From: Auanema rhodensis
Lineage: Eukaryota; Animalia; Nematoda
Reading direction: 5' to 3'
DNA: 64,000 nucleotides
Assembly (NCBI GenBank): GCA_964057225.1
Contig: OZ059895.1
Span: forward strand, 15,996,001-16,060,000
In this document: positions 37,649 through 64,000 of the stretch, piece by piece
How the letters are laid out: each line of letters starts with the position of its first letter
Numbering within the stretch: the stretch's first letter is position 1
The notes under the pieces: model-generated
Told to the model about the DNA's origin: nothing
Databases searched by the model: none
Seen by the model: only the letters and a program-made list of their open reading frames with translations
Made by a program: the position numbers and the translations under genes

Positions 37649-37650
37649 TG

Positions 37651-37659
37651 CCCTTTTTC
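37651..37659 (-). promoter_or_regulatory. Polypurine tract
   Basis: GAAAAAGGG on the element sense strand, 2 nt (CA) before the 3' LTR. Confidence 0.75.
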
Positions 37660-41300: not shown

Positions 41301-44300
41301 TCCCAATCGGCTTCTGGCGGAACATATGGTAGAATTGGCTTATGCTTAAAGGGTTCACAAGCCGGAATTTTTCCAATTATTGCCTGTCCGATGACTGAAT
41401 TAGCTTCCATAGCTATTGTTTCATCGGTATCGTTACGGAACATAACATATACTCCACTGGTATCACGAAACGCAGTTGGATATAATGATTTTAATGCGCT
41501 TCCACTATCCCCTAAGACAACCACTTCGTTAGATTCTAGTGGTTTATCTGTCTTTATTGGGATAGGTGCCTCTTCATCAGGCTTTAATGTTTTTGTTCTT
41601 AAATTAATGATATTCACAGTTATCTCCGTATGCTTAATAGATTCGTTTCCTATTAATGGGATGGCATTGTTTCCAATCTCCAACCTCTTCTTGGATGGTT
41701 TAAGGCTGACGTCGATGTTTTCGCTGTCAAGCGCTTTCATGAAATCTAGTCCAATTAAAGCGGGAGCAGGACAGTCATGATCGTTTGAGACCAAAAAGGT
41801 GTGTTCGATCTCGTAACCGGCAATTTCAATTACAAGATTTATCTTTCCATAAAATGTGAAAGTGGACTTGTTGGCTGCCATCGCTACTAAATGTCTCTTC
41901 TTGACATTTTCGGCCATGTTCAGATATTTGAGGGTGGAGAGCCTAACATATGACACTGATGAGCCTGAATCCCATAAAGCTAAAATCAGTTTATCTTCAA
42001 CTGATATATATACTAATGGTAACTTTGTTTCCGCTGATACAATAGAAGCAACAAATGGTATTGCGATTGGAATAAATGTTACTAAAGCAGGATAGTATTG
42101 CTTCATGATGTTATCTGGCATCTGTTGGTCTGGGCGGCTTACAAGTTCCAATGTTTCTTCATAGCTTGGGGGCTCATTATCTATTTCGTGGACATGCATT
42201 ACGGTTAGTGGAGTGGCTCTGAAGAACCAAAATTTAGCAACAACGAAAAGAATTATTAATACTGCGGCAATCGTAACCATTGATCCTATGAAGATGAGTG
42301 TTCTCTCAATTGATCCTATTAGAAATTGCTTTACGCTAGTCCAGGCGGAAGTTGTGAACTCAGCTGCTTTAGAGATATAGTCACTGCCCTTTTTCAAAAG
42401 ATTAAAGGCGGACGTAATTTTTGGATCGTTGTGAATAGTATGTAAAACATGGTTCTGTCGTATGGATGCTAAACTTGCTCCATATGCAATAGCTGTTGAC
42501 ATTGAGTAAACTCTCAATGATAAATTGGTGTATAAGTTAGCGCCTGTGAACTTTAAAGGTGTTAATTGGTGGTATTGCGCTTTATCAAAGAGTGATATTG
42601 GTTTTACTTCAACCGATCCATTTATATTTATCCATTCTCCATTTTGATAGTATACATCTGTGGGTACATGTTCGCAATCTATCTCTTTTCCATGTGTTAA
42701 TAAGTCTCTTGATCCTGGAGCAGCAAAATATAATCTCTCATCTTCTGTTATTACTGGTGTTTCCAAATAGCATGTATCATTGATCTTATGATTATGATAA
42801 ACAGCTTTAGGTTGAAGAGGTAGGCATATACGAACATGAACTATATCGCTGCCTACGAAACGGGCTGCAATATCCTCTCTTCCTAAAATAGTCCTCATTG
42901 CTATTGTAGGTTCTATGTGTAAAATAGAACGCCATAGCTCGAGGTATCTATTTTGAATCTCACATATGGATTCATAAGATTCCATGAAATGTTTCTGTAG
43001 CTCTTCTTGTATGAGTGTTGTTGTATATTGTAGATGATCTTGAGCTATTCTGCGAGATACGTTGAGGTTGAATTGTATTTCGTTGTTCACTTTTGACGCT
43101 GTATACGTTGCCTGAGCCTGAATTTCTCTGGTTTCTACGGGTGGAGATGATGTTCTTTGTTTCCTTAAGATTCGTGACGCCGTGTCAGTGACTGTTGCTA
43201 ATGTTGTTGGCGAGAGAGTCGTAGTTATCGCGGCTGTTGTCGTCTCAACTGTGGTTGTCGTCGGAATCCGAGTCGTATGGCTTTTAGTTGTCTCCTGAAC
43301 TAGTGAAGCGGGTTTGTCCGTTGTTGTCGTTAATGACAGTCTTCTAGTCAGATAAGGCGGTGTTTCAATATCCTCTAACAGTGGTAAAAATGTTTTTATA
43401 AGTAGCTGGCGTGTATCTGCGCTTGGGTTTTGAATGCGAGGGTGGGGCCCTATCGATATACCGTAGTTAGAATCTTTATCTCGATATAATTTGTTGGTAT
43501 CTGGCACATTGATTGTTAATTGTCGGAACTTTTCATCATCTACGGCTGCTGCTGTTTTATTTGGCCTTATTACTCGCAATGTCATCAAGTTATGGTATAA
43601 GTAAAGAGTGTTTCTAAGTACTATACGCTCATCAGCATTGTCAGTTGTTAGAGTTGGTCGGATCGGCGGCATGTTCACAAAGGATTTTAAAACCTCTTGC
43701 CTTGATGGTACCGACAGATTGTTTTCAAATATTACCGGTGTATAAGCTAACTCCATCGCTATGCTTTCGGCTCTTTCACGGTAGGATCCGTCTTTTTCTA
43801 GCAGTTTTTCGTCAAATTCGTGTGCTGTTAATCTGTCACCTATCTGTTCTAATAATTGTTGTGAGGTTAAATACCGTATAGCGCCGCGAGTGGTTGCTGC
43901 CAGTTCCTTTTGCGCAAGAAAATAAAGTATTGCTTCCTCAGGGTCGTGTATTTCGTATGTTTGAAGGAAACGTTGTATGGATTTATCAGATACGGGACTT
44001 CTTAAGAAGAAATAAAACTTCTCGGGATGTGCTGAAACCCAATCAATAATTGAATATGAAGGGTTGACAGCTCGTCTGGCCTTTATAAGCGGTATTATCT
44101 GATAAATACCAGGATTACTCATCACCGGTCGTAAGAAAGGATAAGGACAAATATTTAATATTAAAGTTTCAAAATCTTCCTGTTTTTGTATCCACTCCTT
44201 GTTTAATTCAACCGTGCATTCCGCAATTGCTCTTTTATCTCTTTTCGCCGGAAGTTTCTTATATTCTCTCTCTATTAAAACATGGATATTGGTGTCATTT

Positions 44301-46054: not shown

Positions 46055-46119
46055 GGTTGGTATATCCTCAGGGTATGTGCGAGATGACGTAATCCCTTTA
46101 CTGCCTGAGCTTCTCGCCG

Positions 46120-47052
46120 TTAAATTCTTACCTCCCTTTTTCGAGTTACCAGATGTTGGATAACTAATGGTAGGGGCGGCTGAGGAGAACCGCTTCCCTG
46201 GGAGTTTGATAATTCGACTCGTTGCCTGAGGCGTCGAATGTATTGATACGCTTGAGCTGGGTATAGCGCTATCTGACTTATTAAGGGTTGGGTTGGAGGA
46301 TACGTGAAGAGAGTTATCACTTGTTCTGTTGTTACCTCCCCTGGAGACAAATTCAAAACTTTTATTAAGCGAGCTGTTAAAGATTTCTTACTTTTGAACT
46401 TATCAGTAGTTAGTGATAAGGGCAAAACTTCGGTAATTTCCTGATTTGGTTCTACAGGATTATTAGAGGTTGAGCGCCTACGCGGTGTATTAGTTTTTCT
46501 TTTATTAATTTTTTTAGAATCAAGCTTTTTCGAATCAAGCTTATCAGTGATAACTGATAAGGGTGATTTGCGAATAGTGAGAGATGAGGTTTTATTAAGT
46601 TGTGAGTTTTCTATCGGAGTGGAAAATGCCTGCGGTGTTAGAGTTAGTTCAAAAGAAGATGCAAGATCGTTATCAGTATTAACTGATAAAGTTGATAAGT
46701 TTAGGTGGGGAGTGGCTGGTGAAGTATTAGAGGTTATTTGTTTTGGTTTTTGAATTTTTTGAATCTTTTTATTACTTTTAAAAGAGTGTACCTTTGGAGT
46801 TGAAGCTGAAGTTTGAATATTGTAGTCCTGAATATAGAAATCAGGGTCCTCCTCGGTGTTGTCCGGAGGTGAATACGTGCCTTCTCGAGGAATGAAGGTT
46901 TTCTCGACTTTGGGTTTTACCTCTTGTTCAGGCTCTTCAATCTGAACACTGAGGAGTCGAGTGCGGCTTCTGGTTCGACTGGCGACTGCGATGTCGTCAC
47001 TGGACTCAGAAGGGTATAGAGCAGGGACGGCCGAAGAGTATCTTCGTGCCAC
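46120..47052 (-). CDS. Upstream S/T/K-rich ORF0, probably an N-terminal extension of Gag in the adjacent frame
   Basis: 310 stop-free codons with no ATG (GTG start in the track); overlaps the open upstream extension of the polyprotein frame. Confidence 0.55.
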   Translation of the reverse strand: MARRYSSAVPALYPSESSDDIAVASRTRSRTRLLSVQIEEPEQEVKPKVEKTFIPREGTYSPPDNTEEDPDFYIQDYNIQTSASTPKVHSFKSNKKIQKIQKPKQITSNTSPATPHLNLSTLSVNTDNDLASSFELTLTPQAFSTPIENSQLNKTSSLTIRKSPLSVITDKLDSKKLDSKKINKRKTNTPRRRSTSNNPVEPNQEITEVLPLSLTTDKFKSKKSLTARLIKVLNLSPGEVTTEQVITLFTYPPTQPLISQIALYPAQAYQYIRRLRQRVELSNSQGSGSPQPPLPLVIQHLVTRKREVRI

Positions 47053-47472
47053 TTTGGAATCACTCTTGGTTTGGAAAAACCGCGAGTGTTTCGTTATATG
47101 GGGGATGTTGACGTTGAATGAGTGACAAGAAATTCAGGTCGGTTATAGGGAAAAGTAAGAAAAGTTTGAAGATTGAGACGTGGCGTCTTTCGCCGAGAAT
47201 CGTTATTAGATGAGAAAGAGTTTTAAAATCTTGGCCTGAGATCTGGCTCCGCCTATCTACCGTATTCTCTTTTCTTTATTCTTTTTCACAGATGTTCATC
47301 AATTATAAATTTTGTTGGTCTTCGCTCTTTCCAGCCTCAATCTTAATACTTTACTCTAATTGAATTCTTGAAAATATGAGAGAGATTTTCAGTCGTTTTA
47401 TGTCCCCTTTTTATGCATAAGATTCTTTATATTTGTAGAGCTGAAGAAGAAAGAAAAAAAAATAATCAAAGA

Positions 47473-48451
47473 ATGGCTTATGAAGGTCTATCGGGAATGA
47501 CTTTTGTCTTGAGAAAGCTGTACGCTGACCTCGTCTTGTATGATCAAGACGAAGTGTTAGCTTATAGGCCTCACCCAGACATGATTAAGATGGTTGGTTA
47601 AAGCAAAGAAACATGTTATATTAATAATAAAAAAAAAATTTTAGTTTATCGAGGATTTAAAAATGCATTATCTGGGGAGGGGATTAGTGAATTTCTCCCT
47701 AATGCAAGAAATAGCGGATGAGGTTGCAGCTATTGGGCGATGGTGCCTCACCGATTTGTGCGCGCATTGGTATGAAAACCCCAATTTAATCGCATCCCCT
47801 TGGAATTGGTATGAGCATAAGCCTCATGATTTTTATGATTATATGTCTAAAATTTTGTTTAAAATTTATTTGTTTTATGAACAGTCTCCTATGGGCTTAT
47901 TGCTAAGGACCTCTGCGGATTCAGAGTATTCGCAGTATTTAGAGCCTAGCAATGAGCCCATCTCACAGCCTATAGAATTTGTGAGACAGTTGCATTTTAA
48001 ATGGGGCTTTTAACAATTGTTTTATATATAATAAATACTTAATTTCACTCATTTGTTCTCTCTCTCTCTTTTTTTTTTCATAACACAAACTTTGGTCGAG
48101 CTTATTAATAAAGAAGGAGTGCGTGCGCCTTGGGAAAATGGCTCATGTGCACGTTGATTATTAAAAGCCGTGGGCGATTCTTTTCCGGAATGATTTTGGC
48201 ATGCTAATGAGATTCCGAGAATATTTAAAAAGATTGCTCATTTTACTAATGGACTGAGACCAAAGCTCGTTTATAAAACGCAATTTTTTTCTTTAAACCA
48301 TTTTACTAATTTATAGAATATTACAATATGAAGACTACGGTAGGTGTGTGGGAATATCTTATGATGTTAGCAACAAAAATGAGCTGAGGAAGGTGACACA
48401 TTCTACGGAGAAGAAAACATCCGTAGCCCATGTGCTTTCGCCAAAATGACC
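47473..48451 (+). pseudogene. Antisense intron-containing accessory gene or remnant inside the element 5' region
   Basis: MAYEGLSG...DMIKM exon joins in frame across a 52-nt GT-AG intron (47593-47644) to FIEDLKMHYLGRG...; later exon-like blocks carry in-frame TGA stops; AATAAA near 48521. Confidence 0.5.
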
Positions 48452-48982
48452 TGACAGGCAACAAAATTTGTGCCAGGATTTTTCGTACTAGTGTGGTCTA
48501 TTCTCACAATCAAAAAAAAAAATAAAAACCGAATAACGGCTCCCGCAAAAATATTTAGTTAGCATGCTCTTTTACGCCTGAATTTAACTTTCAAATCTCT
48601 AGTCCTGACCACAATAAAATATTAAACTTTGTGCGCTTTCAAAATTTCATTCTAACTCCTCGTTGCCAAATAATAATGTAATCAAAATTTCGTTTGGTGA
48701 AATTGTCCCCTATTTCGATCCAAACGTCCTCAAAAAAAAATGCAAGAGAAGCGGTGCAGGATACGGTATTATAAGGGTGGACACTCAGACGGTTTTATGA
48801 GTGGGGACAGCGGGTGAAATTTCAAAATTATATAGTCCTAGCTCTCTAAAAGAGAGATCCCTTGTACCTGCACCTTATACAAGTTGGCGCCCTCATTATG
48901 TTGCTAACCGTGGAGGAAGTTTTAATTTAGATATCAAAATATGGACTTTTTATGCGAGTTTTTGCGACAAAAATGAGTTCGA

Positions 48983-48995
48983 GGTGGAACCTCCA
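48983..48995 (-). promoter_or_regulatory. Primer-binding site complementary to the tRNA-Gln 3' end
   Basis: TGGAGGTTCCACC directly after the 5' LTR; metazoan tRNA-Gln ends ...GGTGGAACCT-CCA. Confidence 0.85.
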
Positions 48996-49361
48996 CGTTC
49001 CATTATGCTCCTACGTATATTGAACAGACCATTGTAGTCTGCTCAACTACGCGTATAGTATTCCATAAGTGTAGCGGTATGGAAACAGAGCATAAGGATT
49101 ACATAAGATAAGGAAATATATAGGTTTATTATACACAATACAATATCATTACAATACAATAACACAAGGATAAAGTAAACTACATTTACAAGACAAAGAC
49201 TAATATATAAGATTAACTAAGTTAGATGCAAACCGTCCATGGGCTTGCAAAGGGGCGAACTCCCGAATAGGGGCATGAGGGAAGGCGGTGCCATTCCTCA
49301 TTCCTCTAGTCGGTCTGGCTCTAACCCTGCAGTTACATATATAGAGTCTCCGAATGGAACG
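48996..49361 (-). repeat. 5' LTR of the Gypsy element
   Basis: 366-bp direct repeat of 37283-37648. Confidence 0.95.
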
Positions 49362-49394
49362 GTATGGCCTGTTAGACTCATTGAGTTGACCATT

Positions 49395-49558
49395 AAACTT
49401 ACCTGGCTGGGAGCTGCCCGCGATCATCAAGGCGGGCTCTCTACGAAGAGGCCTGATCATTGCACTTTTCGATTGGGCTGACCTGTATGGCAATCTCGAG
49501 TTGAGATTCGCCAACAGCTAAATTTTTGCGTTTGGGGATGCGTTCGCGCGTCCCTTAC
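49395..49558 (+). ncRNA. U1: U1 snRNA (separated from its upstream promoter region by the insertion)
   Basis: Intact coding region; insertion at -33..-30. Confidence 0.9.
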
Positions 49559-49797
49559 AATCTCGAGTATTAATTTCACGCTTGGTAATCAGAATATCGT
49601 GAGAGTTTCACGTGAAATCCACGTACATCCACACGCTCACTTCATTTTTGAATTATAATAGCACTTGACCGGTTGTTCTTCATGTTATAAAATTACTTCT
49701 ATACTACAATTTTTCTTTTCAGGAAATTGTGATCATTGAAGCCAAGGGAGAGACTTAGAATCGTAACGTTGGTATTCTGATAACGTGTAGTCTCATA

Positions 49798-49869
49798 TCC
49801 TCGGTAGTATAGTGGTGAGTATCCGCGTCTGTCACATGCGAGACCCGGGTTCAATTCCCGGCCGGGGAG
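49798..49869 (+). tRNA. trnD-GTC: tRNA-Asp(GTC)
   Basis: Copy of 31172. Confidence 0.97.
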
Positions 49870-50121
49870 AATGTTTTACACCTGTTCAGTATGTTTTCTT
49901 CCAGGTAATGCCCTGAGGGTTAAATTATCCGTAAATGTATTGTTTCATTGGCTAAATAGTTGTGAACGGGATGGTCGCCAATACTTTCGGGTTCTTCCCG
50001 CTTGAGTTGCAATTAAAACCTGATCGAATGTTTTTCCTCAAGATTCAGAAATTGAATAAAGTGAAACCCATATGAGATACCAAACAAGGTATGGCCTGTT
50101 AGACTCATTGAGTTGACCATT

Positions 50122-50285
50122 AAACTTACCTGGCTGGGAGCTGCCCGCGATCATCAAGGCGGGCTCTCTACGAAGAGGCCTGATCATTGCACTTTTCGAT
50201 TGGGCTGACTTGTATGGCAATCTCGAGTTGAGATTCGCCAACAGCTAAATTTTTGCGTTTGGGGATGCGTTCGCGCGTCCCTTAC
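50122..50285 (+). ncRNA. U1: U1 snRNA, one C>T variant
   Basis: GACCTGT>GACTTGT. Confidence 0.93.
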
Positions 50286-50524
50286 AATCTCGAGTATTAA
50301 TTTCACGCTTGGTAATCAGAATATCGTGAGAGTTTCACGTGAAATCCACGTACATCCACACGCTCACTTCATTTTTGAATTATAATAGCACTTGACCGGT
50401 TGTTCTTCATGTTATAAAATTACTTCTATACTACAATTTTTCTTTTCAGGAAATTGTGATCATTGAAGCCAAGGGAGAGACTTAGAATCGTAACGTTGGT
50501 ATTCTGATAACGTGTAGTCTCATA

Positions 50525-50596
50525 TCCTCGGTAGTATAGTGGTGAGTATCCGCGTCTGTCACATGCGAGACCCGGGTTCAATTCCCGGCCGGGGAG
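50525..50596 (+). tRNA. trnD-GTC: tRNA-Asp(GTC)
   Basis: Copy of 31172. Confidence 0.97.
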
Positions 50597-50848
50597 AATG
50601 TTTTACACCTGTTCAGTATGTTTTCTTCCAGGTAATGCCCTGAGGGTTAAATTATCCGTAAATGTATTGTTTCATTGGCTAAATAGTTGTGAACGGGATG
50701 GTCGCCAATACTTTCGGGTTCTTCCCGCTTGAGTTGCAATTAAAACCTGATCGAATGTTTTTCCTCAAGATTCAGAAATTGAATAAAGTGAAACCCATAT
50801 GAGATACCAAACAAGGTATGGCCTGTTAGACTCATTGAGTTGACCATT

Positions 50849-51012
50849 AAACTTACCTGGCTGGGAGCTGCCCGCGATCATCAAGGCGGGCTCTCTACGA
50901 AGAGGCCTGATCATTGCACTTTTCGATTGGGCTGACTTGTATGGCAATCTCGAGTTGAGATTCGCCAACAGCTAAATTTTTGCGTTTGGGGATGCGTTCG
51001 CGCGTCCCTTAC
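50849..51012 (+). ncRNA. U1: U1 snRNA, one C>T variant
   Basis: GACCTGT>GACTTGT. Confidence 0.93.
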
Positions 51013-51251
51013 AATCTCGAGTATTAATTTCACGCTTGGTAATCAGAATATCGTGAGAGTTTCACGTGAAATCCACGTACATCCACACGCTCACTTCATT
51101 TTTGAATTATAATAGCACTTGACCGGTTGTTCTTCATGTTATAAAATTACTTCTATACTACAATTTTTCTTTTCAGGAAATTGTGATCATTGAAGCCAAG
51201 GGAGAGACTTAGAATCGTAACGTTGGTATTCTGATAACGTGTAGTCTCATA

Positions 51252-51323
51252 TCCTCGGTAGTATAGTGGTGAGTATCCGCGTCTGTCACATGCGAGACCC
51301 GGGTTCAATTCCCGGCCGGGGAG
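51252..51323 (+). tRNA. trnD-GTC: tRNA-Asp(GTC)
   Basis: Copy of 31172. Confidence 0.97.
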
Positions 51324-51575
51324 AATGTTTTACACCTGTTCAGTATGTTTTCTTCCAGGTAATGCCCTGAGGGTTAAATTATCCGTAAATGTATTGTTTC
51401 ATTGGCTAAATAGTTGTGAACGGGATGGTCGCCAATACTTTCGGGTTCTTCCCGCTTGAGTTGCAATTAAAACCTGATCGAATGTTTTTCCTCAAGATTC
51501 AGAAATTGAATAAAGTGAAACCCATATGAGATACCAAACAAGGTATGGCCTGTTAGACTCATTGAGTTGACCAAT

Positions 51576-51739
51576 AAACTTACCTGGCTGGGAGCTGCCC
51601 GCGATCATCAAGGCGGGCTCTCTACGAAGAGGCCTGATCATTGCACTTTTCGATTGGGCTGACCTGTATGGCAATCTCGAGTTGAGATTCGCCAACAGCT
51701 AAATTTTTGCGTTTGGGGATGCGTTCGCGCGTCCCTTAC
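51576..51739 (+). ncRNA. U1: U1 snRNA
   Basis: Copy of 30769 unit. Confidence 0.95.
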
Positions 51740-51978
51740 AATCTGAAGTATAAATTTCATGCTTGGTAATCAGAATATCGTGAGAGTTTCACGTGAAATC
51801 CACGTACATCCACACGCTCACTTCATTTTTGAATTATAATAGCACTTGACCGGTTGTTCTTCATGTTATAAAATTACTTCTATACTACAATTTTTCTTTT
51901 CAGGAAATTGTGATCATTGAAGCCAAGGGAGAGACTTAGAATCGTAACGTTGGTATTCTGATAACGTGTAGTCTCATA

Positions 51979-52050
51979 TCCTCGGTAGTATAGTGGTGAG
52001 TATCCGCGTCTGTCACATGCGAGACCCGGGTTCAATTCCCGGCCGGGGAG
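51979..52050 (+). tRNA. trnD-GTC: tRNA-Asp(GTC)
   Basis: Copy of 31172. Confidence 0.97.
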
Positions 52051-52302
52051 AATGTTTTACACCTGTTCAGTATGTTTTCTTCCAGGTAATGCCCTGAGGG
52101 TTAAATTATCCGTAAATGTATTGTTTCATTGGCTAAATAGTTGTGAACGGGATGGTCGCCAATACTTTCGGGTTCTTCCCGCTTGAGTTGCAATTAAAAC
52201 CTGATCGAATGTTTTTCCTCAAGATTCAGAAATTGAATAAAGTGAAACCCATATGAGATACCAAACAAGGTATGGCCTGTTAGACTCATTGAGTTGACCA
52301 AT

Positions 52303-52466
52303 AAACTTACCTGGCTGGGAGCTGCCCGCGATCATCAAGGCGGGCTCTCTACGAAGAGGCCTGATCATTGCACTTTTCGATTGGGCTGACCTGTATGGCA
52401 ATCTCGAGTTGAGATTCGCCAACAGCTAAATTTTTGCGTTTGGGGATGCGTTCGCGCGTCCCTTAC
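52303..52466 (+). ncRNA. U1: U1 snRNA
   Basis: Copy of 30769 unit. Confidence 0.95.
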
Positions 52467-52705
52467 AATCTCGAATATTAATTTCATGCTTGGTAATCAG
52501 AATATCGTGAGAGTTTCACGTGAAATCCACGTACATCCACACGCTCACTTCATTTTTGAATTATAATAGCACTTGACCGGTTGTTCTTCATGTTATAAAA
52601 TTACTTCTATACTACAATTTTTCTTTTCAGGAAATTGTGATCATTGAAGCCAAGGGAGAGACTTAGAATCGTAACGTTGGTATTCTGATAACGTGTAGTC
52701 TCATA

Positions 52706-52777
52706 TCCTCGGTAGTATAGTGGTGAGTATCCGCGTCTGTCACATGCGAGACCCGGGTTCAATTCCCGGCCGGGGAG
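52706..52777 (+). tRNA. trnD-GTC: tRNA-Asp(GTC)
   Basis: Copy of 31172. Confidence 0.97.
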
Positions 52778-53029
52778 AATGTTTTACACCTGTTCAGTAT
52801 GTTTTCTTCCAGGTAATGCCCTGAGGGTTAAATTATCCGTAAATGTATTGTTTCATTGGCTAAATAGTTGTGAACGGGATGGTCGCCAATACTTTCGGGT
52901 TCTTCCCGCTTGAGTTGCAATTAAAACCTGATCGAATGTTTTTCCTCAAGATTCAGAAATTGAATAAAGTGAAACCCATATGAGATACCAAACAAGGTAT
53001 GGCCTGTTAGACTCATTGAGTTGACCAAT

Positions 53030-53193
53030 AAACTTACCTGGCTGGGAGCTGCCCGCGATCATCAAGGCGGGCTCTCTACGAAGAGGCCTGATCATTGCAC
53101 TTTTCGATTGGGCTGACCTGTATGGCAATCTCGAGTTGAGATTCGCCAACAGCTAAATTTTTGCGTTTGGGGATGCGTTCGCGCGTCCCTTAC
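53030..53193 (+). ncRNA. U1: U1 snRNA
   Basis: Copy of 30769 unit. Confidence 0.95.
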
Positions 53194-53432
53194 AATCTGA
53201 AGTATAAATTTCATGCTTGGTAATCAGAATATCGTGAGAGTTTCACGTGAAATCCACGTACATCCACACGCTCACTTCATTTTTGAATTATAATAGCACT
53301 TGACCGGTTGTTCTTCATGTTATAAAATTACTTCTATACTACAATTTTTCTTTTCAGGAAATTGTGATCATTGAAGCCAAGGGAGAGACTTAGAATCGTA
53401 ACGTTGGTATTCTGATAACGTGTAGTCTCATA

Positions 53433-53504
53433 TCCTCGGTAGTATAGTGGTGAGTATCCGCGTCTGTCACATGCGAGACCCGGGTTCAATTCCCGGCCGG
53501 GGAG
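53433..53504 (+). tRNA. trnD-GTC: tRNA-Asp(GTC)
   Basis: Copy of 31172. Confidence 0.97.
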
Positions 53505-53756
53505 AATGTTTTACACCTGTTCAGTATGTTTTCTTCCAGGTAATGCCCTGAGGGTTAAATTATCCGTAAATGTATTGTTTCATTGGCTAAATAGTTGTGA
53601 ACGGGATGGTCGCCAATACTTTCGGGTTCTTCCCGCTTGAGTTGCAATTAAAACCTGATCGAATGTTTTTCCTCAAGATTCAGAAATTGAATAAAGTGAA
53701 ACCCATATGAGATACCAAACAAGGTATGGCCTGTTAGACTCATTGAGTTGACCAAT

Positions 53757-53920
53757 AAACTTACCTGGCTGGGAGCTGCCCGCGATCATCAAGGCGGGCT
53801 CTCTACGAAGAGGCCTGATCATTGCACTTTTCGATTGGGCTGACCTGTATGGCAATCTCGAGTTGAGATTCGCCAACAGCTAAATTTTTGCGTTTGGGGA
53901 TGCGTTCGCGCGTCCCTTAC
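53757..53920 (+). ncRNA. U1: U1 snRNA
   Basis: Copy of 30769 unit. Confidence 0.95.
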
Positions 53921-54159
53921 AATCTCGAATATTAATTTCATGCTTGGTAATCAGAATATCGTGAGAGTTTCACGTGAAATCCACGTACATCCACACGCTC
54001 ACTTCATTTTTGAATTATAATAGCACTTGACCGGTTGTTCTTCATGTTATAAAATTACTTCTATACTACAATTTTTCTTTTCAGGAAATTGTGATCATTG
54101 AAGCCAAGGGAGAGACTTAGAATCGTAACGTTGGTATTCTGATAACGTGTAGTCTCATA

Positions 54160-54231
54160 TCCTCGGTAGTATAGTGGTGAGTATCCGCGTCTGTCACATG
54201 CGAGACCCGGGTTCAATTCCCGGCCGGGGAG
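54160..54231 (+). tRNA. trnD-GTC: tRNA-Asp(GTC)
   Basis: Copy of 31172. Confidence 0.97.
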
Positions 54232-54483
54232 AATGTTTTACACCTGTTCAGTATGTTTTCTTCCAGGTAATGCCCTGAGGGTTAAATTATCCGTAAATGT
54301 ATTGTTTCATTGGCTAAATAGTTGTGAACGGGATGGTCGCCAATACTTTCGGGTTCTTCCCGCTTGAGTTGCAATTAAAACCTGATCGAATGTTTTTCCT
54401 CAAGATTCAGAAATTGAATAAAGTGAAACCCATATGAGATACCAAACAAGGTATGGCCTGTTAGACTCATTGAGTTGACCAAT

Positions 54484-54647
54484 AAACTTACCTGGCTGGG
54501 AGCTGCCCGCGATCATCAAGGCGGGCTCTCTACGAAGAGGCCTGATCATTGCACTTTTCGATTGGGCTGACCTGTATGGCAATCTCGAGTTGAGATTCGC
54601 CAACAGCTAAATTTTTGCGTTTGGGGATGCGTTCGCGCGTCCCTTAC
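54484..54647 (+). ncRNA. U1: U1 snRNA
   Basis: Copy of 30769 unit. Confidence 0.95.
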
Positions 54648-54886
54648 AATCTGAAGTATAAATTTCATGCTTGGTAATCAGAATATCGTGAGAGTTTCAC
54701 GTGAAATCCACGTACATCCACACGCTCACTTCATTTTTGAATTATAATAGCACTTGACCGGTTGTTCTTCATGTTATAAAATTACTTCTATACTACAATT
54801 TTTCTTTTCAGGAAATTGTGATCATTGAAGCCAAGGGAGAGACTTAGAATCGTAACGTTGGTATTCTGATAACGTGTAGTCTCATA

Positions 54887-54958
54887 TCCTCGGTAGTATA
54901 GTGGTGAGTATCCGCTTCTGTCACATGCGAGACCCGTGTTCAATTCCCGGCCGGGGAG
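54887..54958 (+). tRNA. trnD-GTC: tRNA-Asp(GTC) variant with anticodon-stem and T-stem mismatches
   Basis: Same two substitutions as 32626 and 33353. Confidence 0.85.
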
Positions 54959-55210
54959 AATGTTTTACACCTGTTCAGTATGTTTTCTTCCAGGTAATGC
55001 CCTGAGGGTTAAATTATCCGTAAATGTATTGTTTCATTGGCTAAATAGTTGTGAAGGGGATGGTCGCCAATACTTTCGGGTTCTTCCCGCTTGAGTTGCA
55101 ATTAAAACCTGATCGAATGTTTTTCCTCAAGATTCAGAAATTGAATAAAGTGAAACCCATATGAGATACCAAACAAGGTATGGCCTGTTAGACTCATTGA
55201 GTTGACCAAT

Positions 55211-55374
55211 AAACTTACCTGGCTGGGAGCTGCCCGCGATCATCAAGGCGGGCTCTCTACGAAGAGGCCTGATCATTGCACTTTTCGATTGGGCTGACCT
55301 GTATGGCAATCTCGAGTTGAGATTCGCCAACAGCTAAATTTTTGCGTTTGGGGATGCGTTCGCGCGTCCCTTAC
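55211..55374 (+). ncRNA. U1: U1 snRNA
   Basis: Copy of 30769 unit. Confidence 0.95.
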
Positions 55375-55613
55375 AATCTCGAATATTAATTTCATGCTTG
55401 GTAATCAGAATATCGTGAGAGTTTCACGTGAAATCCACGTACATCCACACGCTCACTTCATTTTTGAATTATAATAGCACTTGACCGGTTGTTCTTCATG
55501 TTATAAAATTACTTCTATACTACAATTTTTCTTTTCAGGAAATTGTGATCATTGAAGCCAAGGGAGAGACTTAGAATCGTAACGTTGGTATTCTGATAAC
55601 GTGTAGTCTCATA

Positions 55614-55685
55614 TCCTCGGTAGTATAGTGGTGAGTATCCGCGTCTGTCACATGCGAGACCCGGGTTCAATTCCCGGCCGGGGAG
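55614..55685 (+). tRNA. trnD-GTC: tRNA-Asp(GTC)
   Basis: Copy of 31172. Confidence 0.97.
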
Positions 55686-55937
55686 AATGTTTTACACCTG
55701 TTCAGTATGTTTTCTTCCAGGTAATGCCCTGAGGGTTAAATTATCCGTAAATGTATTGTTTCATTGGCTAAATAGTTGTGAACGGGATGGTCGCCAATAC
55801 TTTCGGGTTCTTCCCGCTTGAGTTGCAATTAAAACCTGATCGAATGTTTTTCCTCAAGATTCAGAAATTGAATAAAGTGAAACCCATATGAGATACCAAA
55901 CAAGGTATGGCCTGTTAGACTCATTGAGTTGACCAAT

Positions 55938-56101
55938 AAACTTACCTGGCTGGGAGCTGCCCGCGATCATCAAGGCGGGCTCTCTACGAAGAGGCCTGAT
56001 CATTGCACTTTTCGATTGGGCTGACCTGTATGGCAATCTCGAGTTGAGATTCGCCAACAGCTAAATTTTTGCGTTTGGGGATGCGTTCGCGCGTCCCTTA
56101 C
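55938..56101 (+). ncRNA. U1: U1 snRNA
   Basis: Copy of 30769 unit. Confidence 0.95.
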
Positions 56102-56340
56102 AATCTCGAATATTAATTTCATGCTTGGTAATCAGAATATCGTGAGAGTTTCACGTGAAATCCACGTACATCCACACGCTCACTTCATTTTTGAATTATA
56201 ATAGCACTTGACCGGTTGTTCTTCATGTTATAAAATTACTTCTATACTACAATTTTTCTTTTCAGGAAATTGTGATCATTGAAGCCAAGGGAGAGACTTA
56301 GAATCGTAACGTTGGTATTCTGATAACGTGTAGTCTCATA

Positions 56341-56412
56341 TCCTCGGTAGTATAGTGGTGAGTATCCGCGTCTGTCACATGCGAGACCCGGGTTCAATTC
56401 CCGGCCGGGGAG
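56341..56412 (+). tRNA. trnD-GTC: tRNA-Asp(GTC)
   Basis: Copy of 31172. Confidence 0.97.
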
Positions 56413-56664
56413 AATGTTTTACACCTGTTCAGTATGTTTTCTTCCAGGTAATGCCCTGAGGGTTAAATTATCCGTAAATGTATTGTTTCATTGGCTAAAT
56501 AGTTGTGAACGGGATGGTCGCCAATACTTTCGGGTTCTTCCCGCTTGAGTTGCAATTAAAACCTGATCGAATGTTTTTCCTCAAGATTCAGAAATTGAAT
56601 AAAGTGAAACCCATATGAGATACCAAACAAGGTATGGCCTGTTAGACTCATTGAGTTGAAAAAT

Positions 56665-56828
56665 AAACTTACCTGGCTGGGAGCTGCCCGCGATCATCAA
56701 GGCGGGCTCTCTACGAAGAGGCCTGATCATTGCACTTTTCGATTGGGCTGACCTGTATGGCAATCTCGAGTTGAGATTCGCCAACAGCTAAATTTTTGCG
56801 TTTGGGGATGCGTTCGCGCGTCCCTTAC
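56665..56828 (+). ncRNA. U1: U1 snRNA
   Basis: Copy of 30769 unit; unique upstream GACCAATA>GAAAAATA change. Confidence 0.95.
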
Positions 56829-57075
56829 AATCTCGAATATTAATTTCATGCTTGGTAATCAGAATATCGTGAGAGTTTCACGTGAAATCCACGTACATCC
56901 ACACGCTCACTTCATTTTTGAATTATAATAGCACTTGACCGGTTGTTCTTCATGTTATAAAATTACTTCTATACTACAATTTTTCTTTTCAGGAAATTGT
57001 GATCAGTCACGTCCTACTCCAATTGGCACCAACGTTGAACCTAATACTGAAAAGGTGAATCTGACGACTCAAGAT

Positions 57076-60000
57076 ATGGAGAACAACGTGAATATGATGC
57101 AACAACCGTGTCTGGATGAAAACTCCGCGTGCGGTGCAAATTCATCTTTTCATACATTGTCCATGGCAGTCACCGTTAAGGGCGTTGGCTGTGATTCAAG
57201 CTTGGACGTCGAAGTATCACCAAGCAGCAATGTAAGTCTTGATGAACTGAGGCTCTGGTCAGCTTCGTCTAAGATGAGCTCACGCGTATCGGGATCACTT
57301 GAATTAGAAGTACCTGTAGTTTCGCAGATGTCAACGATACGCGCACTACCAGGGTATAGCAAGCAATACCCAATGCTGGATATAATGAATTATTATTCAA
57401 TATTGCACTGCGGGCATGACGGTTCGGTGCTTGCCAGATCGGACGGAGAGAACTTCCAGATGTCTACTCGGCCTGATCAAGAGATATCTGCAGGGGATAA
57501 ATTTGCTCGATTTGAGCCAATAATCTCGGCCCTTAGTGCGGCCTTTATAATAATATCACCGAAATTGAGTGAGCCACGGGTCATGTATGAGGATGACCAC
57601 AAACGCATCTCTAGGGCTATGGATGAACTCCTTGAAAAGATGATGCGCGAAAATCATTTGAATCGCGGTGGTGGTTCCTTCGTAATCCGGTTTCAGGACA
57701 CGCGAAATCACATCGTTGTTTTGACATCGCCATTTTCAGTATTGTATAAGGTATACAAGCACTGCATTGGCATAACGCAGTCTTACGTGCGCACTGACTC
57801 GCTCACTAAGCCACACATAAGCATGATACCTTCCTATCGAATTACGGTACAGGAAGCTCATGTATCCCCACGGTTTGACGTCACTGTAAAACCAATTTTC
57901 AGTGAGTTGAGCTGCTTACTAGACGCAATGCGATATAGCAGCTATTTTAGGCATTTGACCGTCGTTCGCGATGTAAGTAATATGCATAGGGAGGGTACGG
58001 GAATTGCTCATGTAGCGCAGAAATTTGAAGCGCTTGAAAGCTCATTGCAACTACTCACCCATGATGTACGTAAACTGCAAGAGGGGGCTTTGATCTATAG
58101 GACTCTGAAGATTGACTTGCGTAAGTACGACGTATCAGTCATACGATGCGTTAACGTTAATAAGATCTTAATGAATCCGGAGCCTATTCCTTTGATAACC
58201 TATTCTTCTCACTTAGCCGTTAATATCGCTAACGAAGAGAGATTATATCGGTGCCCAGGTTTGCCCCTCATTTTAGGGTGCTCCGTTGCTCGTACTGGTG
58301 AGCCCGATTATGGTTCACATTATGGAGATCAGTTCGGCTCAATAACCCCCCAGGTTATTACACCCCTCAGCATAGGAAATGAACTACGTGGAGCGACTAT
58401 GTTTTCTCAACCATCTGTTAAAAGTGCACACTTTCATTACAGATTAACTTTACGCGACAATGTTGCTGATGACGAATACCCGCACGATCTTGAGTACATC
58501 ATCGTAGTTGATTTTGCAGATGATAATCTTGTGCCCCACGATTACATGGTGTCATCGTATGGCAGGCTTGAAGTCAAGAACGAGGGAGAAACAATAGTGC
58601 CTTTCCAAGACGAGACTTGCGATATGGGGGCACGCGGCACGGATTTCGCGATTGCCTACATGACAAAGACAATACCAGTGACTGGACTTTATAGTGCGCA
58701 TTACGCGCGGCATTACCTTCTGTTTCCGCACGCAGCCGACGCTGTGCAGAGTGTCGATGCCATTGAACTACACACTGGGGTGGGAAAGATTATGAATTCC
58801 ATATCCCTAAATCAAACCGTCGACTTTACAGCTCTTGACGGCACGCGCACGCACGCGTTGACTACCAGCTCCAACGGCAGTCATAGGGGAGTTTCGACGT
58901 TCTTCCCACGCTTCATTGAGTATGTGCCATTTGAAGATATATGCACACCAGATGAGGGTAAATCACGTACGACTGGCTTATCCTTTCGTTTCCTCGAAAG
59001 CGTTGTACCTGCGTATTTGGATCTCCATTGTCGCGACAGACGTGACGTCGGCCTTGCATGTAGCGTGTTCGGAGCCTTCTGTGAGGGTACCGAAGCATTC
59101 ACCTGTAAGAGGATACTAGTGCGTACCGATCGTGGTTACGCCATTAATAGAGAGGGAGTCTTTTACAGGCCCAAGGATAAACGAAGTCTTGATATCGATT
59201 CTTCGATTAACGCCATTGACATTAACTCACTGGCATGCGGGCCATCTGGTATCGTTAATAATAGGTCAAAGTTCATGACTTCGTCTGGAGGCATAATGGA
59301 TATTGTCTTTTCGGAGACTATGGCCATGTGTGATGCTACGGGCTTATCTAGCCGTTCATCAATGCTTAGCTTTGGCTATTTAGCTGGAGGCGGAAGTGTC
59401 AATCTTGCGTTACGGCCAAACGGGCTCGGCGATATCAAGACGTATAGTATGCTTACTGCATACTACAACGATAAAATTTACGACATGGAGCGTAACATGC
59501 TCGCAATTGTGCGCACCACCAACGAGCTATCCCTTAAGTTGGATTCATCCATTATACATGTAGGAAATGACATGGTGTACAGATTTGTTGACCATAAACA
59601 AGGGTTCGGCAAGTCAGTCGACCACCTGCTGTCAGTTATTAACAGCGGGGCATCTGCTGCTTCCCTTATTTTCCCACAAATTGGAGTAATTGCCTTTTAT
59701 GGCACCGCTCTACGCACGTTCCTTTCAGCCGTATCGAGCATCATCGACGGTAAAAATGCCACGCTGACCATTGCGTCTTCGTATGCGATGTCAAACTATG
59801 CTCTATCTCTAACCAACATGCATGGCTTAGTATCGCACATGTACTCCACGGTGCCAGACGAAGCTAAAGGGTGTGGTTTAGGTCGACTATCTAACCATTG
59901 GATTGATATTGCCCCAATCGCGAACATTGATGTAATATCAGATGCGTACACGAAGTATTCTGTCAATTTTGTTGAAATGCCAAAATTCGGGCGAGTAAGC

Positions 60001-60231
60001 GTTCGTACTTCAAGTCTAGGTAACAGCGCCTTGTCGAAGATGCTCCCTATTCATACTATCAGCCCTCACGATACCTCAGTCCAGGGGATGTTAACTAACA
60101 CGCTTAGAAGAATGAACCTTGGAATTGAGCACCAATATGTATCATTATGCTCTATATTACATGGAGGTTCCACCTTAGAATCTTTTTACGATTTTCGAAC
60201 TCGATTAAATTATGAATTATCATTCAGTTAA
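57076..60231 (+). CDS. Intronless ~1051-aa endogenous viral element-like protein resembling a dsRNA-virus outer-capsid/spike protein (Phytoreovirus P2-like)
   Basis: Uninterrupted ORF, visibly less AT-rich than the host; two coiled coils, a beta-rich middle, a hydrophobic hairpin VINSGASAASLIFPQIGVIA and an LPIH motif; first true ATG at 57076; family call from memory only. Confidence 0.65.
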   Translation: MENNVNMMQQPCLDENSACGANSSFHTLSMAVTVKGVGCDSSLDVEVSPSSNVSLDELRLWSASSKMSSRVSGSLELEVPVVSQMSTIRALPGYSKQYPMLDIMNYYSILHCGHDGSVLARSDGENFQMSTRPDQEISAGDKFARFEPIISALSAAFIIISPKLSEPRVMYEDDHKRISRAMDELLEKMMRENHLNRGGGSFVIRFQDTRNHIVVLTSPFSVLYKVYKHCIGITQSYVRTDSLTKPHISMIPSYRITVQEAHVSPRFDVTVKPIFSELSCLLDAMRYSSYFRHLTVVRDVSNMHREGTGIAHVAQKFEALESSLQLLTHDVRKLQEGALIYRTLKIDLRKYDVSVIRCVNVNKILMNPEPIPLITYSSHLAVNIANEERLYRCPGLPLILGCSVARTGEPDYGSHYGDQFGSITPQVITPLSIGNELRGATMFSQPSVKSAHFHYRLTLRDNVADDEYPHDLEYIIVVDFADDNLVPHDYMVSSYGRLEVKNEGETIVPFQDETCDMGARGTDFAIAYMTKTIPVTGLYSAHYARHYLLFPHAADAVQSVDAIELHTGVGKIMNSISLNQTVDFTALDGTRTHALTTSSNGSHRGVSTFFPRFIEYVPFEDICTPDEGKSRTTGLSFRFLESVVPAYLDLHCRDRRDVGLACSVFGAFCEGTEAFTCKRILVRTDRGYAINREGVFYRPKDKRSLDIDSSINAIDINSLACGPSGIVNNRSKFMTSSGGIMDIVFSETMAMCDATGLSSRSSMLSFGYLAGGGSVNLALRPNGLGDIKTYSMLTAYYNDKIYDMERNMLAIVRTTNELSLKLDSSIIHVGNDMVYRFVDHKQGFGKSVDHLLSVINSGASAASLIFPQIGVIAFYGTALRTFLSAVSSIIDGKNATLTIASSYAMSNYALSLTNMHGLVSHMYSTVPDEAKGCGLGRLSNHWIDIAPIANIDVISDAYTKYSVNFVEMPKFGRVSVRTSSLGNSALSKMLPIHTISPHDTSVQGMLTNTLRRMNLGIEHQYVSLCSILHGGSTLESFYDFRTRLNYELSFS

Positions 60232-61284
60232 AGAGAATTTATTTTTTTTTTGAGCTATTTCCCTGGGCTACCACCTCTCTTTCCAATTCAGTACGAAGGG
60301 TCTCACTCTTTTTTTTTAATAAACAGGGTTGATATTTTGCGCAGGGTGAGATACTGAATTGGCCAACTTTTCGATATTTTTGTTTCTGCGCAGTTGTATT
60401 TTTGATTTTTCATTGTGGCGAAAAATATATATTTTTTGGAAATGGAAAAGCTGTTTGATATAAGCAAAATTGGACCTTAATAAAGTCAATTTGCGATATT
60501 TTTGATAAAGATTACAAGTTTGTACTAACAGAATGGCCACTGTAAGAAAATAACATCCGCTGTATCATTTGTCATATTTGAATTTAAACCTTCCTCTCAT
60601 AATTTTTTGATTGTTGATTCAAGTTGAAACAAAGACTTTGGAATTTGAAAGATGCCTTGTTTGGTAATTCATTGTTATTCAGTAACAATTGAGATTTTGA
60701 TTTGTCCGCCATACTCACTTCTCTAATTTATGAATCACATTGTCACATAATCATATCCTATCATCATCTTAACAATTAATTATATTCACATCTTTTTTTT
60801 CCTCTCTATAGTTTGTTTTTGTATGAGTTCATTAATTAATTAATCTTCAACCCATATTATTATATATCTTTTTTTTCTTCGATTTTTTTTTCATGTTATT
60901 CACTAATTTATTCACTATCAACTATTCATATTCTTATCTTGTTTACTAACTTATTCCACTATTTTACATTGTAGATTGTTCTGACTTTCCTCCTTTTCCA
61001 AAACGGCAACCTCCAAGAATAATTATACGGATACGCCTTTCCGTACCTCTCAAAGATTAAGAGACAAGAGAAATCGTATTTCTCGATTTCCTTTTCCCGA
61101 TAGTGACGACTCGTTTGACAACGATTTAAGTCCATCGGACGACGAAAAAACGCCAACACACTTGGCTGTAACACCGAAAAAAGAAAAAACTCCCCAGCGC
61201 GAAAAACTACCTCTGAAGCTCCTACTCAACATGAGACCACATGAGCAATCAAACAGAGATTCAACTCTGTAAACGCCTAATTTA

Positions 61285-62266
61285 ATGGCATCTCCAGAGT
61301 TGACCAAAAACTTAACAAAAGTTCTAGGCAGTCCACACTGCCCTAAATACGATGGTAGCCGAAGCTTTCGATCGTACATCGATATATTTAACCGATTCGC
61401 GAATGCTGCGGGACTTTCGGTAATTGAAAGAATTTTTCTTTTTCCTCTGCTGCTTCAGCAGAATGATTCTGCGATCTCTGCATATAACTCGATTTCTTCC
61501 GAAATTCGTGAACGAGGGCCTTGGAAAGACCTTGTTTCACAATTGGCAGAGTTACTTTGCCCTGCCACGGAAAGGAATTTCACGATCGCGAAGTTGCTAC
61601 GCTCGACGCAAGGAGAGAAAACTGTTACTCAGTTGCCTCATACTTGGAAGAAATGGCTTCCAGTATTATGAGCCCAACTGATCGAGAAAGAGAGCTCATA
61701 TTAAGATCAGCTTTCTTAAATGGATTGAACGCTGATTTAGGCATAATTGTTCAAGGAAAAGATCCGAAGACTTATGAGGAAGCAAAAAGGACAGCACGTT
61801 TTGAAGAAGCAATTCGTGCTAACTATAAGAAACAGCATGAAGAAAACTCAACTATGCAAGAGTTGATTTCTGCAGTTCAGAAGATCACCATGAAGGAAAA
61901 TAGGAACTAAAGGAACCATCAGCAGCCACGAGATTTCGAACGGAATAATGGCAACAATCCAAGAAACCCTTGGAGGAATTTCAAAAATAAATTCAGCAGG
62001 AACTCTGGCCCTCGACAAAATTATGGAAACAACTACTCAATGGAGAGTCATCATCATACGAGAGAACCTCGCAACAATTATCCAAGAGGAAATCGAGACA
62101 ACCTATTCTAAATTCTCCAGAAAATGACGAATTATTGGAAAGAAATGAAAATCGGAAAAATACCTGGAATTCTATTCAAGAGAAAATTAAACAAAAATCA
62201 ATTGAACAACAACATCGACTGAATAATAGTAACCGAATAGCATCACGTACATTTGAAATAGGTTAA
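61285..62266 (+). pseudogene. Frameshifted gag homologous to the first element, fused to an integrase C-terminal remnant
   Basis: LGSPHCPKYDGSRSFR vs LSSPYCPIYDGSRNFR; ILRSAFLNGL vs ILRSTFLRGL; frameshift near 61630; ELLERN...RIASRTFEIG aligns ungapped with ELLQRR...RAHHRDIQPG. Confidence 0.85.
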
Positions 62267-62339: not shown

Positions 62340-62734
62340 TGTAATACTTTATAATTCTGTACTTTATTCTTTCTATAATTTTTATGTATTTCTTTATTCT
62401 TTATTCTGTATTTCATATTTCTTAATTCTAATTTCTTGTCTTAGTGTATTATGTTATCAGTTATATTTTACAACCTCAGCATTTTCCAGGATAATTACAA
62501 TTGTCATTGACAACTTAAAACCTTGCGTGGAAAATGCTGATAACATTCGCTATATAAGCTTGCCATTCAACTGAATCTTCAGTTGGCGGACTTATCTTTA
62601 TTTGTTTATTGTTTAAATGTTTTTTATTTATAATAAATCTTTCTCTCTTCCTCAAATCTTATTGTTTCTTTTACAACACATCAATCTAAGGGTCAATAAC
62701 ATGGAACATTAATATCCAAATCAAGGATATTACA
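62340..62734 (+). repeat. Putative 395-bp 3' LTR of the second element
   Basis: TGTAATA...TATTACA terminal inverted repeats, TATATAA at 62551, AATAAA at 62633; ends exactly where the array resumes; only one copy in the window. Confidence 0.7.
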
Positions 62735-62964
62735 TGTTTTCTTCCAGGTAATGCCCTGAGGGTTAAATTATCCGTAAATGTATTGTTTCATTGGCTAAAT
62801 AGTTGTGAACGGGATGGTCGCCAATACTTTCGGGTTCTTCCCGCTTGAGTTGCAATTAAAACCTGATCGAATGTTTTTCCTCAAGATTCAGAAATTGAAT
62901 AAAGTGAAACCCATATGAGATACCAAACAAGGTATGGCCTGTTAGACTCATTGAGTTGACCAAT

Positions 62965-63128
62965 AAACTTACCTGGCTGGGAGCTGCCCGCGATCATCAA
63001 GGCGGGCTCTCTACGAAGAGGCCTGATCATTGCACTTTTCGATTGGGCTGACCTGTATGGCAATCTCGAGTTGAGATTCGCCAACAGCTAAATTTTTGCG
63101 TTTGGGGATGCGTTCGCGCGTCCCTTAC
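62965..63128 (+). ncRNA. U1: U1 snRNA
   Basis: Copy of 30769 unit. Confidence 0.95.
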
Positions 63129-63367
63129 AATCTCGAATATTAATTTCATGCTTGGTAATCAGAATATCGTGAGAGTTTCACGTGAAATCCACGTACATCC
63201 ACACGCTCACTTCATTTTTGAATTATAATAGCACTTGACCGGTTGTTCTTCATGTTATAAAATTACTTCTATACTACAATTTTTCTTTTCAGGAAATTGT
63301 GATCATTGAAGCCAAGGGAGAGACTTAGAATCGTAACGTTGGTATTCTGATAACGTGTAGTCTCATA

Positions 63368-63439
63368 TCCTCGGTAGTATAGTGGTGAGTATCCGCGTCT
63401 GTCACATGCGAGACCCGGGTTCAATTCCCGGCCGGGGAG
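63368..63439 (+). tRNA. trnD-GTC: tRNA-Asp(GTC)
   Basis: Copy of 31172. Confidence 0.97.
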
Positions 63440-63691
63440 AATGTTTTACACCTGTTCAGTATGTTTTCTTCCAGGTAATGCCCTGAGGGTTAAATTATCC
63501 GTAAATGTATTGTTTCATTGGCTAAATAGTTGTGAACGGGATGGTCGCCAGTACTTTCGGGTTCTTCCCGCTTGAGTTGCAATTAAAACCTGATCGAATG
63601 TTTTTCCTCAAGATTCAGAAATTGAATAAAGTGAAACCCATATGAGATACCAAACAAGGTATGGCCTGTTAGACTCATTGAGTTGACCAAT

Positions 63692-63855
63692 AAACTTACC
63701 TGGCTGGGAGCTGCCCGCGATCATCAAGGCGGGCTCTCTACGAAGAGGCCTGATCATTGCACTTTTCGATTGGGCTGACCTGTATGGCAATCTCGAGTTG
63801 AGATTCGCCAACAGCTAAATTTTTGCGTTTGGGGATGCGTTCGCGCGTCCCTTAC
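63692..63855 (+). ncRNA. U1: U1 snRNA
   Basis: Copy of 30769 unit. Confidence 0.95.
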
Positions 63856-64000
63856 AATCTGAAGTATAAATTTCATGCTTGGTAATCAGAATATCGTGAG
63901 AGTTTCACGTGAAATCCACGTACATCCACACGCTCACTTCATTTTTGAATTATAATAGCACTTGACCGGTTGTTCTTCATGTTATAAAATTACTTCTATA

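Follow-up and report, generated by a model that had tools for sequence, protein, structure and literature searches.

A foreign intronless gene at the 5' long terminal repeat position of a gypsy-type element in Auanema rhodensis, likely copied from the messenger of an unknown RNA virus

Features of the locus

The window analyzed here is a stretch of 64,000 nucleotides (nt) from the nematode Auanema rhodensis (assembly GCA_964057225.1, contig OZ059895.1, positions 15,996,001 to 16,060,000), and its subject is an open reading frame (ORF) of 1051 amino acids (aa) that lies within a tandem array of U1 small nuclear RNA (snRNA) and tRNA-Asp genes and is fused to the remains of a long terminal repeat (LTR) retrotransposon. 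The foreign DNA that carries this ORF is likely a complementary DNA (cDNA) copy of the messenger of an unknown RNA virus, made when the reverse transcriptase (RT) of a retrotransposon switched template at the primer-binding site, a reading to which we assign a probability of roughly 0.7. The features of the locus are collected in Table 1.

The whole insert spans 5729 bp, only the first 3148 bp of which are foreign. The ORF and the LTR element are on the same strand, and the right border of the insert is a clean LTR end. The 14 nt at 60162-60175 are identical to those directly after the 5' LTR of an intact gypsy-type element nearby and are therefore a primer-binding site, which we take to match tRNA-Gln. 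Because the foreign DNA is followed in order by 8 nt from an LTR end, the primer-binding site, a leader, a gag-like region, and a 3' LTR, it occupies the 5' LTR position of a multi-copy gypsy-type element. The Pfam family Retrotrans_gag matches the broken gag region at expectation values (E) of 0.08-0.16 only, and pol was not found in the insert (57006-62734).

These borders differ from those of the first-pass annotation, which had extended the insert to 60231. Instead, the foreign DNA stops at 60153, the final 25 aa of the ORF are retrotransposon sequence, and the flanks of the ORF are the U1/tRNA-Asp array and the LTR element rather than host genes. The array breaks off at 57005, which is unit position 665, and 156 bp of the array unit, including one tRNA-Asp gene, are gone at the insert site; whole additional units may also have been lost. 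No target-site duplication was found at the insert borders. The closest U1 copy (56665-56826, same strand) is 180 bp upstream of the insert, and a TTTTCAG acceptor at 56986-56992 lies 13 nt before the junction; this acceptor occurs in every array unit, and no ATG is present between it and the first ATG of the ORF at 57076.

Table 1. Coordinates of the insert, its parts, and its surroundings in the window
Feature	Position	Strand	Basis
Full-length gypsy-type element	37283..49361	-	identical 366-bp LTRs, 4-bp target duplication, one 2679-aa frame, same primer-binding site
U1 snRNA and tRNA-Asp(GTC) tandem array, 727-bp unit, left flank	49362..57005	+	
Foreign stretch without introns, 3148 bp, at the element's 5' LTR position	57006..60153	+	end of array match at 57005; contig branching and higher depth from 60154; composition
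ORF, 1051 aa (1026 foreign residues and 25 retrotransposon read-through residues)	57076..60231	+	stop-free frame from the first ATG
Predicted coiled coil, aa 309-336	58000..58083	+	crude heptad score 9.75, higher than in any of 200 shuffles
Weak heptad stretch (aa 797-824), then hydrophobic helix-Pro-helix segment (aa 851-879)	59464..59712	+	heptad score and Kyte-Doolittle hydropathy
Last 8 nt of LTR (ATATTACA)	60154..60161	+	same as the 3' LTR end at 62727-62734
Primer-binding site, 14 nt (TGGAGGTTCCACCT)	60162..60175	+	identical to the 14 nt after the 5' LTR of the full-length gypsy-type element at 37283-49361
AT-rich leader of LTR element, GC 0.29	60176..60984 (right edge approximate)	+	composition; multi-copy by contig depth
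Broken gag-like region, several frames	60985..62266	+	tblastx against the neighboring element's gag, E 8.5e-32, 34-49% identity
Single 3' LTR, 395 bp, termini TGTAATA...TATTACA (7-bp inverted), AATAAA at 62632	62340..62734	+	
Array, right flank, restarting at unit position 95	62735..64000	+	

Within the window the array occupies 30711-37282, 49362-57005, and 62735-64000, with 22 U1 and 20 tRNA copies in units that are 99-100% identical. In sequencing run X1, contigs of the array are about 100 times as deep as those of the ORF. In a literature search, no published account of such a U1/tRNA array with this primer site was found.

The ORF and its predicted product

The first-pass annotation had described an intronless, stop-free frame with a composition unlike that of the host, and both descriptions were borne out. 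The frame on the + strand has no stop over 56932-60231, stops number 38-96 in each of the five remaining frames of 57006-60153, and the longest stop-free run in 1000 base shuffles of the foreign DNA did not exceed 243 aa. The foreign DNA has a GC content of 0.46, and GC at third codon positions (GC3) is 0.469 in the ORF versus 0.297 in a single-exon host hydrolase frame and 0.329 in the neighboring gypsy polyprotein. The effective codon number is 59.9 for the ORF versus 50.3 for the gypsy frame, and the pooled host set for these codon statistics, in which some intron sequence is present, gives only rough guidance. As to the putative 5' truncation proposed at first pass, the ATG at 57076 has G at both -3 and +4 and is preceded by 23 stop-free codons, for which the chance expectation is about 1 in 3.

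The N-terminus has no strong hydrophobicity (by a crude test, no 12-residue window that begins within residues 1-30 has a Kyte-Doolittle mean above 1.37), in agreement with the earlier statement that a signal peptide is absent; the best 19-residue windows, with means of 1.57 and 1.55, fall at aa 143-161 and aa 861-879. Four motifs that had been quoted from the late region were located at aa 800-823, 851-873, 900-919, and 987-993, and 58 aa remain after LPIH. A late coiled coil had also been proposed there; heptads are indeed present at aa 797-824, but their score of 7.75 is borderline, lying right at the 95th percentile of best-window scores from 200 shuffles, and the stronger coiled coil is the one at aa 309-336. 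The helix-Pro-helix segment at aa 851-879 is a possible membrane-active part of the protein, judging by hydropathy. Taken together, the predicted coiled coil and the hydrophobic segment would be compatible with a membrane-penetrating spike, but are not specific for one.

Presence in sequencing runs

Eleven of the 14 listed sequencing runs, from three studies, carry the stretch wholly or partly, nine of them with at least half of its words. No RNA run is listed among the carriers, which is neutral as to expression. Seven of these 11 carriers are possibly the window's own source, and runs X8-X11 are not flagged as such; X9, which comes from another study, contains 0.94 of the words. Contigs from four runs (X1, X8, X9, and X10) were compared with the window. 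In X1, one 3208-nt contig covers 56976-60183 with 0 differences, and in X9 one contig covers 57067-60079, also with 0 differences; X8 (five listed pieces) and X10 (two) agree with the window without difference as well. Among 40 of the 58 difference rows, none falls inside the foreign DNA, and the element part differs at many sites; in X9, a different sequence lies upstream of 62340.

The contigs of X1 and X9 break at 60154-60183, where depth goes up in X1 (51.5 before, 123-159 after) and in X9 (28.2 before, 75-77 after). Contig depth is a rough guide only, and a step of about 2.5-fold is as expected for low-copy sequence joined to a multi-copy element at 60153/60154. In X1, where depth is flat and a single contig spans the ORF, no second, intron-split copy of the ORF was found at 85% identity or above. 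The pol-less element at 60154-62734 is itself multi-copy, with roughly 2.5-3 times the ORF depth inside and 4-6 times in the LTR (X1 and X9; rough values), compatible with two more copies that each have two LTRs; the copies differ at many sites.

These data bear on whether an assembly chimera, or a contaminant contig, was spliced into the repeat array. The flanks on both sides are near-identical repeats, seven of the carrier runs may be the window's source, and the junction between the LTR and the array on the right is bridged by none of the listed contigs. On the left, the contigs of X1 and X8 enter the array by just 30 and 25 nt, below the 31-letter bridging rule, and the X9 contig opens with 29 letters that have no match in the window before 57067, where X9 may have another left junction (57006-57067). 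However, the X1 and X8 contigs lead without a single difference from the array into the foreign DNA and on from there into the primer site, X9, which is not flagged as a source, holds 0.94 of the words, and a misassembly is unlikely to fall 8 nt from a primer site. A chimera is unlikely because DNA runs from three studies contain the ORF, and with all evidence considered we regard splicing during assembly or by contamination as highly improbable. Of the junctions, contigs cross the left one and the primer-site one, and no listed contig crosses the one between LTR and array. As for an endogenous viral element with host flanks, the evidence consists of DNA-type runs from three studies and of junction contigs reaching at most 30 nt on one side.

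Origin of the foreign DNA

In LTR retrotransposons, reverse transcription begins at the primer-binding site, and the second strand transfer finishes there. We propose that a plus-sense RNA of foreign origin would have been taken up by a retrotransposon particle in the germ line, the enzymes coming from an intact element with the same primer. After copying no more than 8 nt of LTR end, the RT would have switched to the foreign RNA and continued for about 3.15 kb towards its 5' end, so that the 3' part of the RNA would have been dropped and the C-terminus of the protein cut. Pairing at the primer site would then have linked the foreign cDNA to the remaining element cDNA, and integrase would have joined the LTR end only, leaving the other end to be sealed by host repair with a deletion. 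One switch onto a co-packaged plus-sense RNA predicts the same-strand orientation, the loss of the RNA 3' part, and the loss of the 5' LTR, all of which are observed, and joining by a single LTR end with repair on the left would explain the 156-bp deletion. The junction anatomy supports the earlier proposal of a recent cDNA copy of a foreign RNA whose 3' end was lost.

The same end sequence could also have arisen later by repair, if a two-LTR element had inserted first and a DNA break had then removed most of its 5' LTR together with 156 bp of the array, the gap being patched with free cDNA through microhomology of at most 8 nt. Such a course would account for the deletion and the absent target duplication, and the odd left end in X9 may show further rearrangement. 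Yet chance would place the joint this close (8 nt) to the primer site at only 8 of 395 LTR positions (about 2%), and the joint falls where template switching predicts; we consider later repair quite unlikely.

Outer-shell proteins of RNA viruses are frequently orphans. Since no host parent was seen at 85% identity, codon use is foreign, the anatomy is that of an RNA copy, and proteins of this kind often lack relatives, the source of the ORF is, by exclusion, probably viral. The gene likely came from a non-enveloped RNA virus and encoded one of its structural proteins, for attachment or entry. The first-pass annotation had gone further and compared the product with the outer-capsid protein P2 of Phytoreovirus. 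Its viral origin stands as the likely one, but the P2 likeness found no support in any search, and no cognate virus came up; we hold a P2-like identity as less likely than not, neither shown nor refuted. The fullest version, in which a near-complete P2-like cell-entry spike gene of an undescribed, still circulating reovirus-like nematode virus was captured very recently where a gypsy RT had left the primer site, is somewhat less probable still; in that version, the left end of the insert may be the RNA's own 5' terminus.

Several results weigh against the capture of an RNA virus messenger by template switching, in addition to the gaps at the junctions given above. A phmmer search of 1.84 billion representative proteins returned 0 matches at E 0.001 or better. 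The whole protein has no match in Pfam, where eight windows of it reached E 0.036 at best, below the cut-offs, and the PDB, searched with the whole protein and four parts, gave chance-level rows at most (best E 0.26). No match was obtained from NCBIfam and PHROGs, from word-indexed searches with the whole protein, aa 690-1026, and aa 790-900 among proteins of about 560-1840 aa, or from pattern scans of viral, metagenome, and prokaryote contigs, which detect close relatives only. The language-model neighbors of the whole protein are MACPF/cytolysin-like with a best score of 0.78 (threshold 0.9), and those of the C-terminal third are incoherent, all below 0.9. The broken gag is just 34-49% identical to the gag of the full-length element, which is therefore not the parent element. 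Finally, the usual model of LTR capture, as given in the accessible parts of PMC5131818, involves two switches and keeps both LTRs (this and the other papers cited here were available in part, and statements about them are limited to those parts).

An exact sequence look-up likewise gave no match. The phmmer, Pfam, and PDB searches also brought up no best match to a cellular or DNA-transposon protein, the outcome that had been named as fatal to a viral origin. The folding and Foldseek check suggested at first pass yielded single-sequence models with a predicted local distance difference test (pLDDT) of 29.6 and 34.2, and the structural matches to them are noise. The Foldseek rows on these low-pLDDT models have template modeling (TM) scores of 0.05-0.3, including eight at E 0.001 or better with TM at most 0.07, and a 1149-aa match (E 0.07) was treated as noise too. 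A DNA-transposon origin was rejected, as no notable terminal inverted repeats lie around the ORF. An env-like gene of the LTR element was rejected as well: the ORF is outside the element, before the primer site, its N-terminus has no strong hydrophobicity, and it has no fusion-protein Pfam match, whereas the neighbor's env has one.

The same capture might have drawn on a source other than an RNA virus, such as a DNA virus, a symbiont (microsporidian or other), or another mobile element's accessory gene, perhaps pore-forming-like. The lack of a viral homolog in the phmmer search would agree with this, as would the weak grouping of nine of the ten best named language-model matches in one clan (MACPF/cytolysin-like). 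Scores of 0.78 or less, however, are at the level reached by shuffled proteins, there is no Pfam, NCBIfam, PHROG, or PDB match, and no prokaryote relative was found by a pattern scan limited to close relatives; for a cellular pore-former as large as this, relatives would normally be expected. Such a source appears unlikely.

A retrocopy of a fast-evolving host gene deserves mention because host mRNAs are known to be captured by LTR elements (PMC5131818, in part), and a host orphan gene would likewise have no homologs. It is nevertheless very unlikely, given that no exon-like second copy lies over the ORF in X1 at 85% identity and that GC3 is 0.47 versus 0.30-0.33.

The unbroken frame had been ascribed to recent insertion or to selection; as there is no divergence among the four runs, the open frame points to youth, and selection is not needed. 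The insert probably dates from very recent times and has likely been neutral to date, and a young neutral relic is our default reading. In the fullest P2-like version given above, U1 read-through and trans-splicing at TTTTCAG could express the ORF or feed antiviral small RNAs.

Neighboring elements and host genes

The full-length gypsy-type element at 37283-49361 is a candidate for the type of helper that would have supplied the enzymes. It has identical LTRs and one intact frame, which points to recent activity of gypsy-type elements with the same primer. Its LTRs end in CG and not in the usual TG..CA, it sits about 30 bp upstream of a U1 gene, and its 2679-aa frame includes a class III fusion glycoprotein between gag and protease (Pfam Monjiviricetes_fusion, E 6e-15). 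In its long leader, a 122-aa antisense frame (47645-48013, + strand) has no Pfam match.

Fragments of host genes occupy 1-30700 of the window, including a MutL C-terminal domain, a single-exon alpha/beta hydrolase, a RIO kinase, and an innexin. The motif TTTCAG is enriched in the window, occurring 40 times where shuffles average 21 and never exceed 35, as would suit a nematode.

Comparison with known systems and significance

The closest parallel is eBxnv-1, a nodavirus-like sequence captured by a Bel/Pao LTR element in the nematode Bursaphelenchus xylophilus (PMC5177903, in part). According to the accessible text, the two share a nematode-type host, a single intact intronless ORF, an LTR context, low copy number, and carriers without differences, and RT copy-choice was proposed there too. 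In eBxnv-1, however, an RNA-dependent RNA polymerase (RdRp) gene lies between two LTRs, whereas here an orphan gene replaces a gypsy-type 5' LTR at the primer site within a U1/tRNA array. Recombinants formed by lymphocytic choriomeningitis virus (LCMV) with the intracisternal A-particle (IAP) are similar in that non-retroviral RNA was integrated through recombination with an LTR retrotransposon (via PMC3205384, in part); they were experimental and somatic, in mouse cells, with no endogenous copy reported in the accessible parts of that source, while the insert described here is apparently inherited and shared among samples. Gypsy elements also adjoin same-strand viral inserts in Aedes (10.1101/127498, in part).

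In LTR-mediated mRNA retroposition, templates switch at a median microsimilarity of 6 bp (PMC5131818, in part). The fusion of a partial ORF to LTR-element sequence is consistent with such a few-base switch, and an intronless foreign ORF is indeed joined here in the same orientation to an LTR end, primer site, gag, and LTR. Unlike the products described in the accessible parts of that paper, the insert has a single LTR and a deletion at its target, would have needed one switch only, and has no host parent in view. Where the classic two-switch product has both LTRs and a target-site duplication, this locus has one LTR plus 8 nt and a 156-bp target loss; by X1 depth, no host parent was seen at 85% identity or more.

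Reovirus-like viruses and RdRp inserts occur in nematodes (PMC12548735 and PMC11445058, both in part). In the nematode orbi-like clade, only VP1, VP3, VP4, and NS1-like proteins are recognized, at least in the available portion of PMC12548735, and the outer-shell segments missing from that clade could be orphans like this one. The inserts known from the accessible parts of both sources are degraded RdRp fragments, and no sequence link to the ORF protein is shown there. Rice dwarf virus P2 has heptad repeats, an N-terminal hydrophobic peptide, and a C-terminal transmembrane-like segment (PMC8632066, in part). Its size of 127 kDa, against 1026 residues of a protein cut short, and its heptads resemble the ORF product, and its late hydrophobic segment may do so, but no homology was detected, and the ORF has no strong N-terminal hydrophobic peptide (PMC8632066 and PMC3797527, both in part). 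As to the heptads, aa 309-336 scores above all 200 shuffles and aa 797-824 is borderline, by a crude score that is not P2-specific.

LTR-captured viral elements and reovirus-like insertions in nematodes are thus already known; the one-LTR junction at the primer site, the array target, and the orphan cargo are new. A literature search made mostly without subscription papers found no report of this locus or of a nematode outer-capsid insert.

The locus provides a base-exact natural record of the likely entry of a non-retroviral RNA into the nematode germ line, by one switch and a one-ended insertion. It can also serve as a 3-kb bait in the hunt for a virus whose protein was recognized by no search, at a time when the outer-shell segments of nematode reovirus-like viruses are still to be identified (PMC12548735, in part). 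If the insert proves to be polymorphic and to produce small RNAs, inherited antiviral memory in a nematode would become directly testable.

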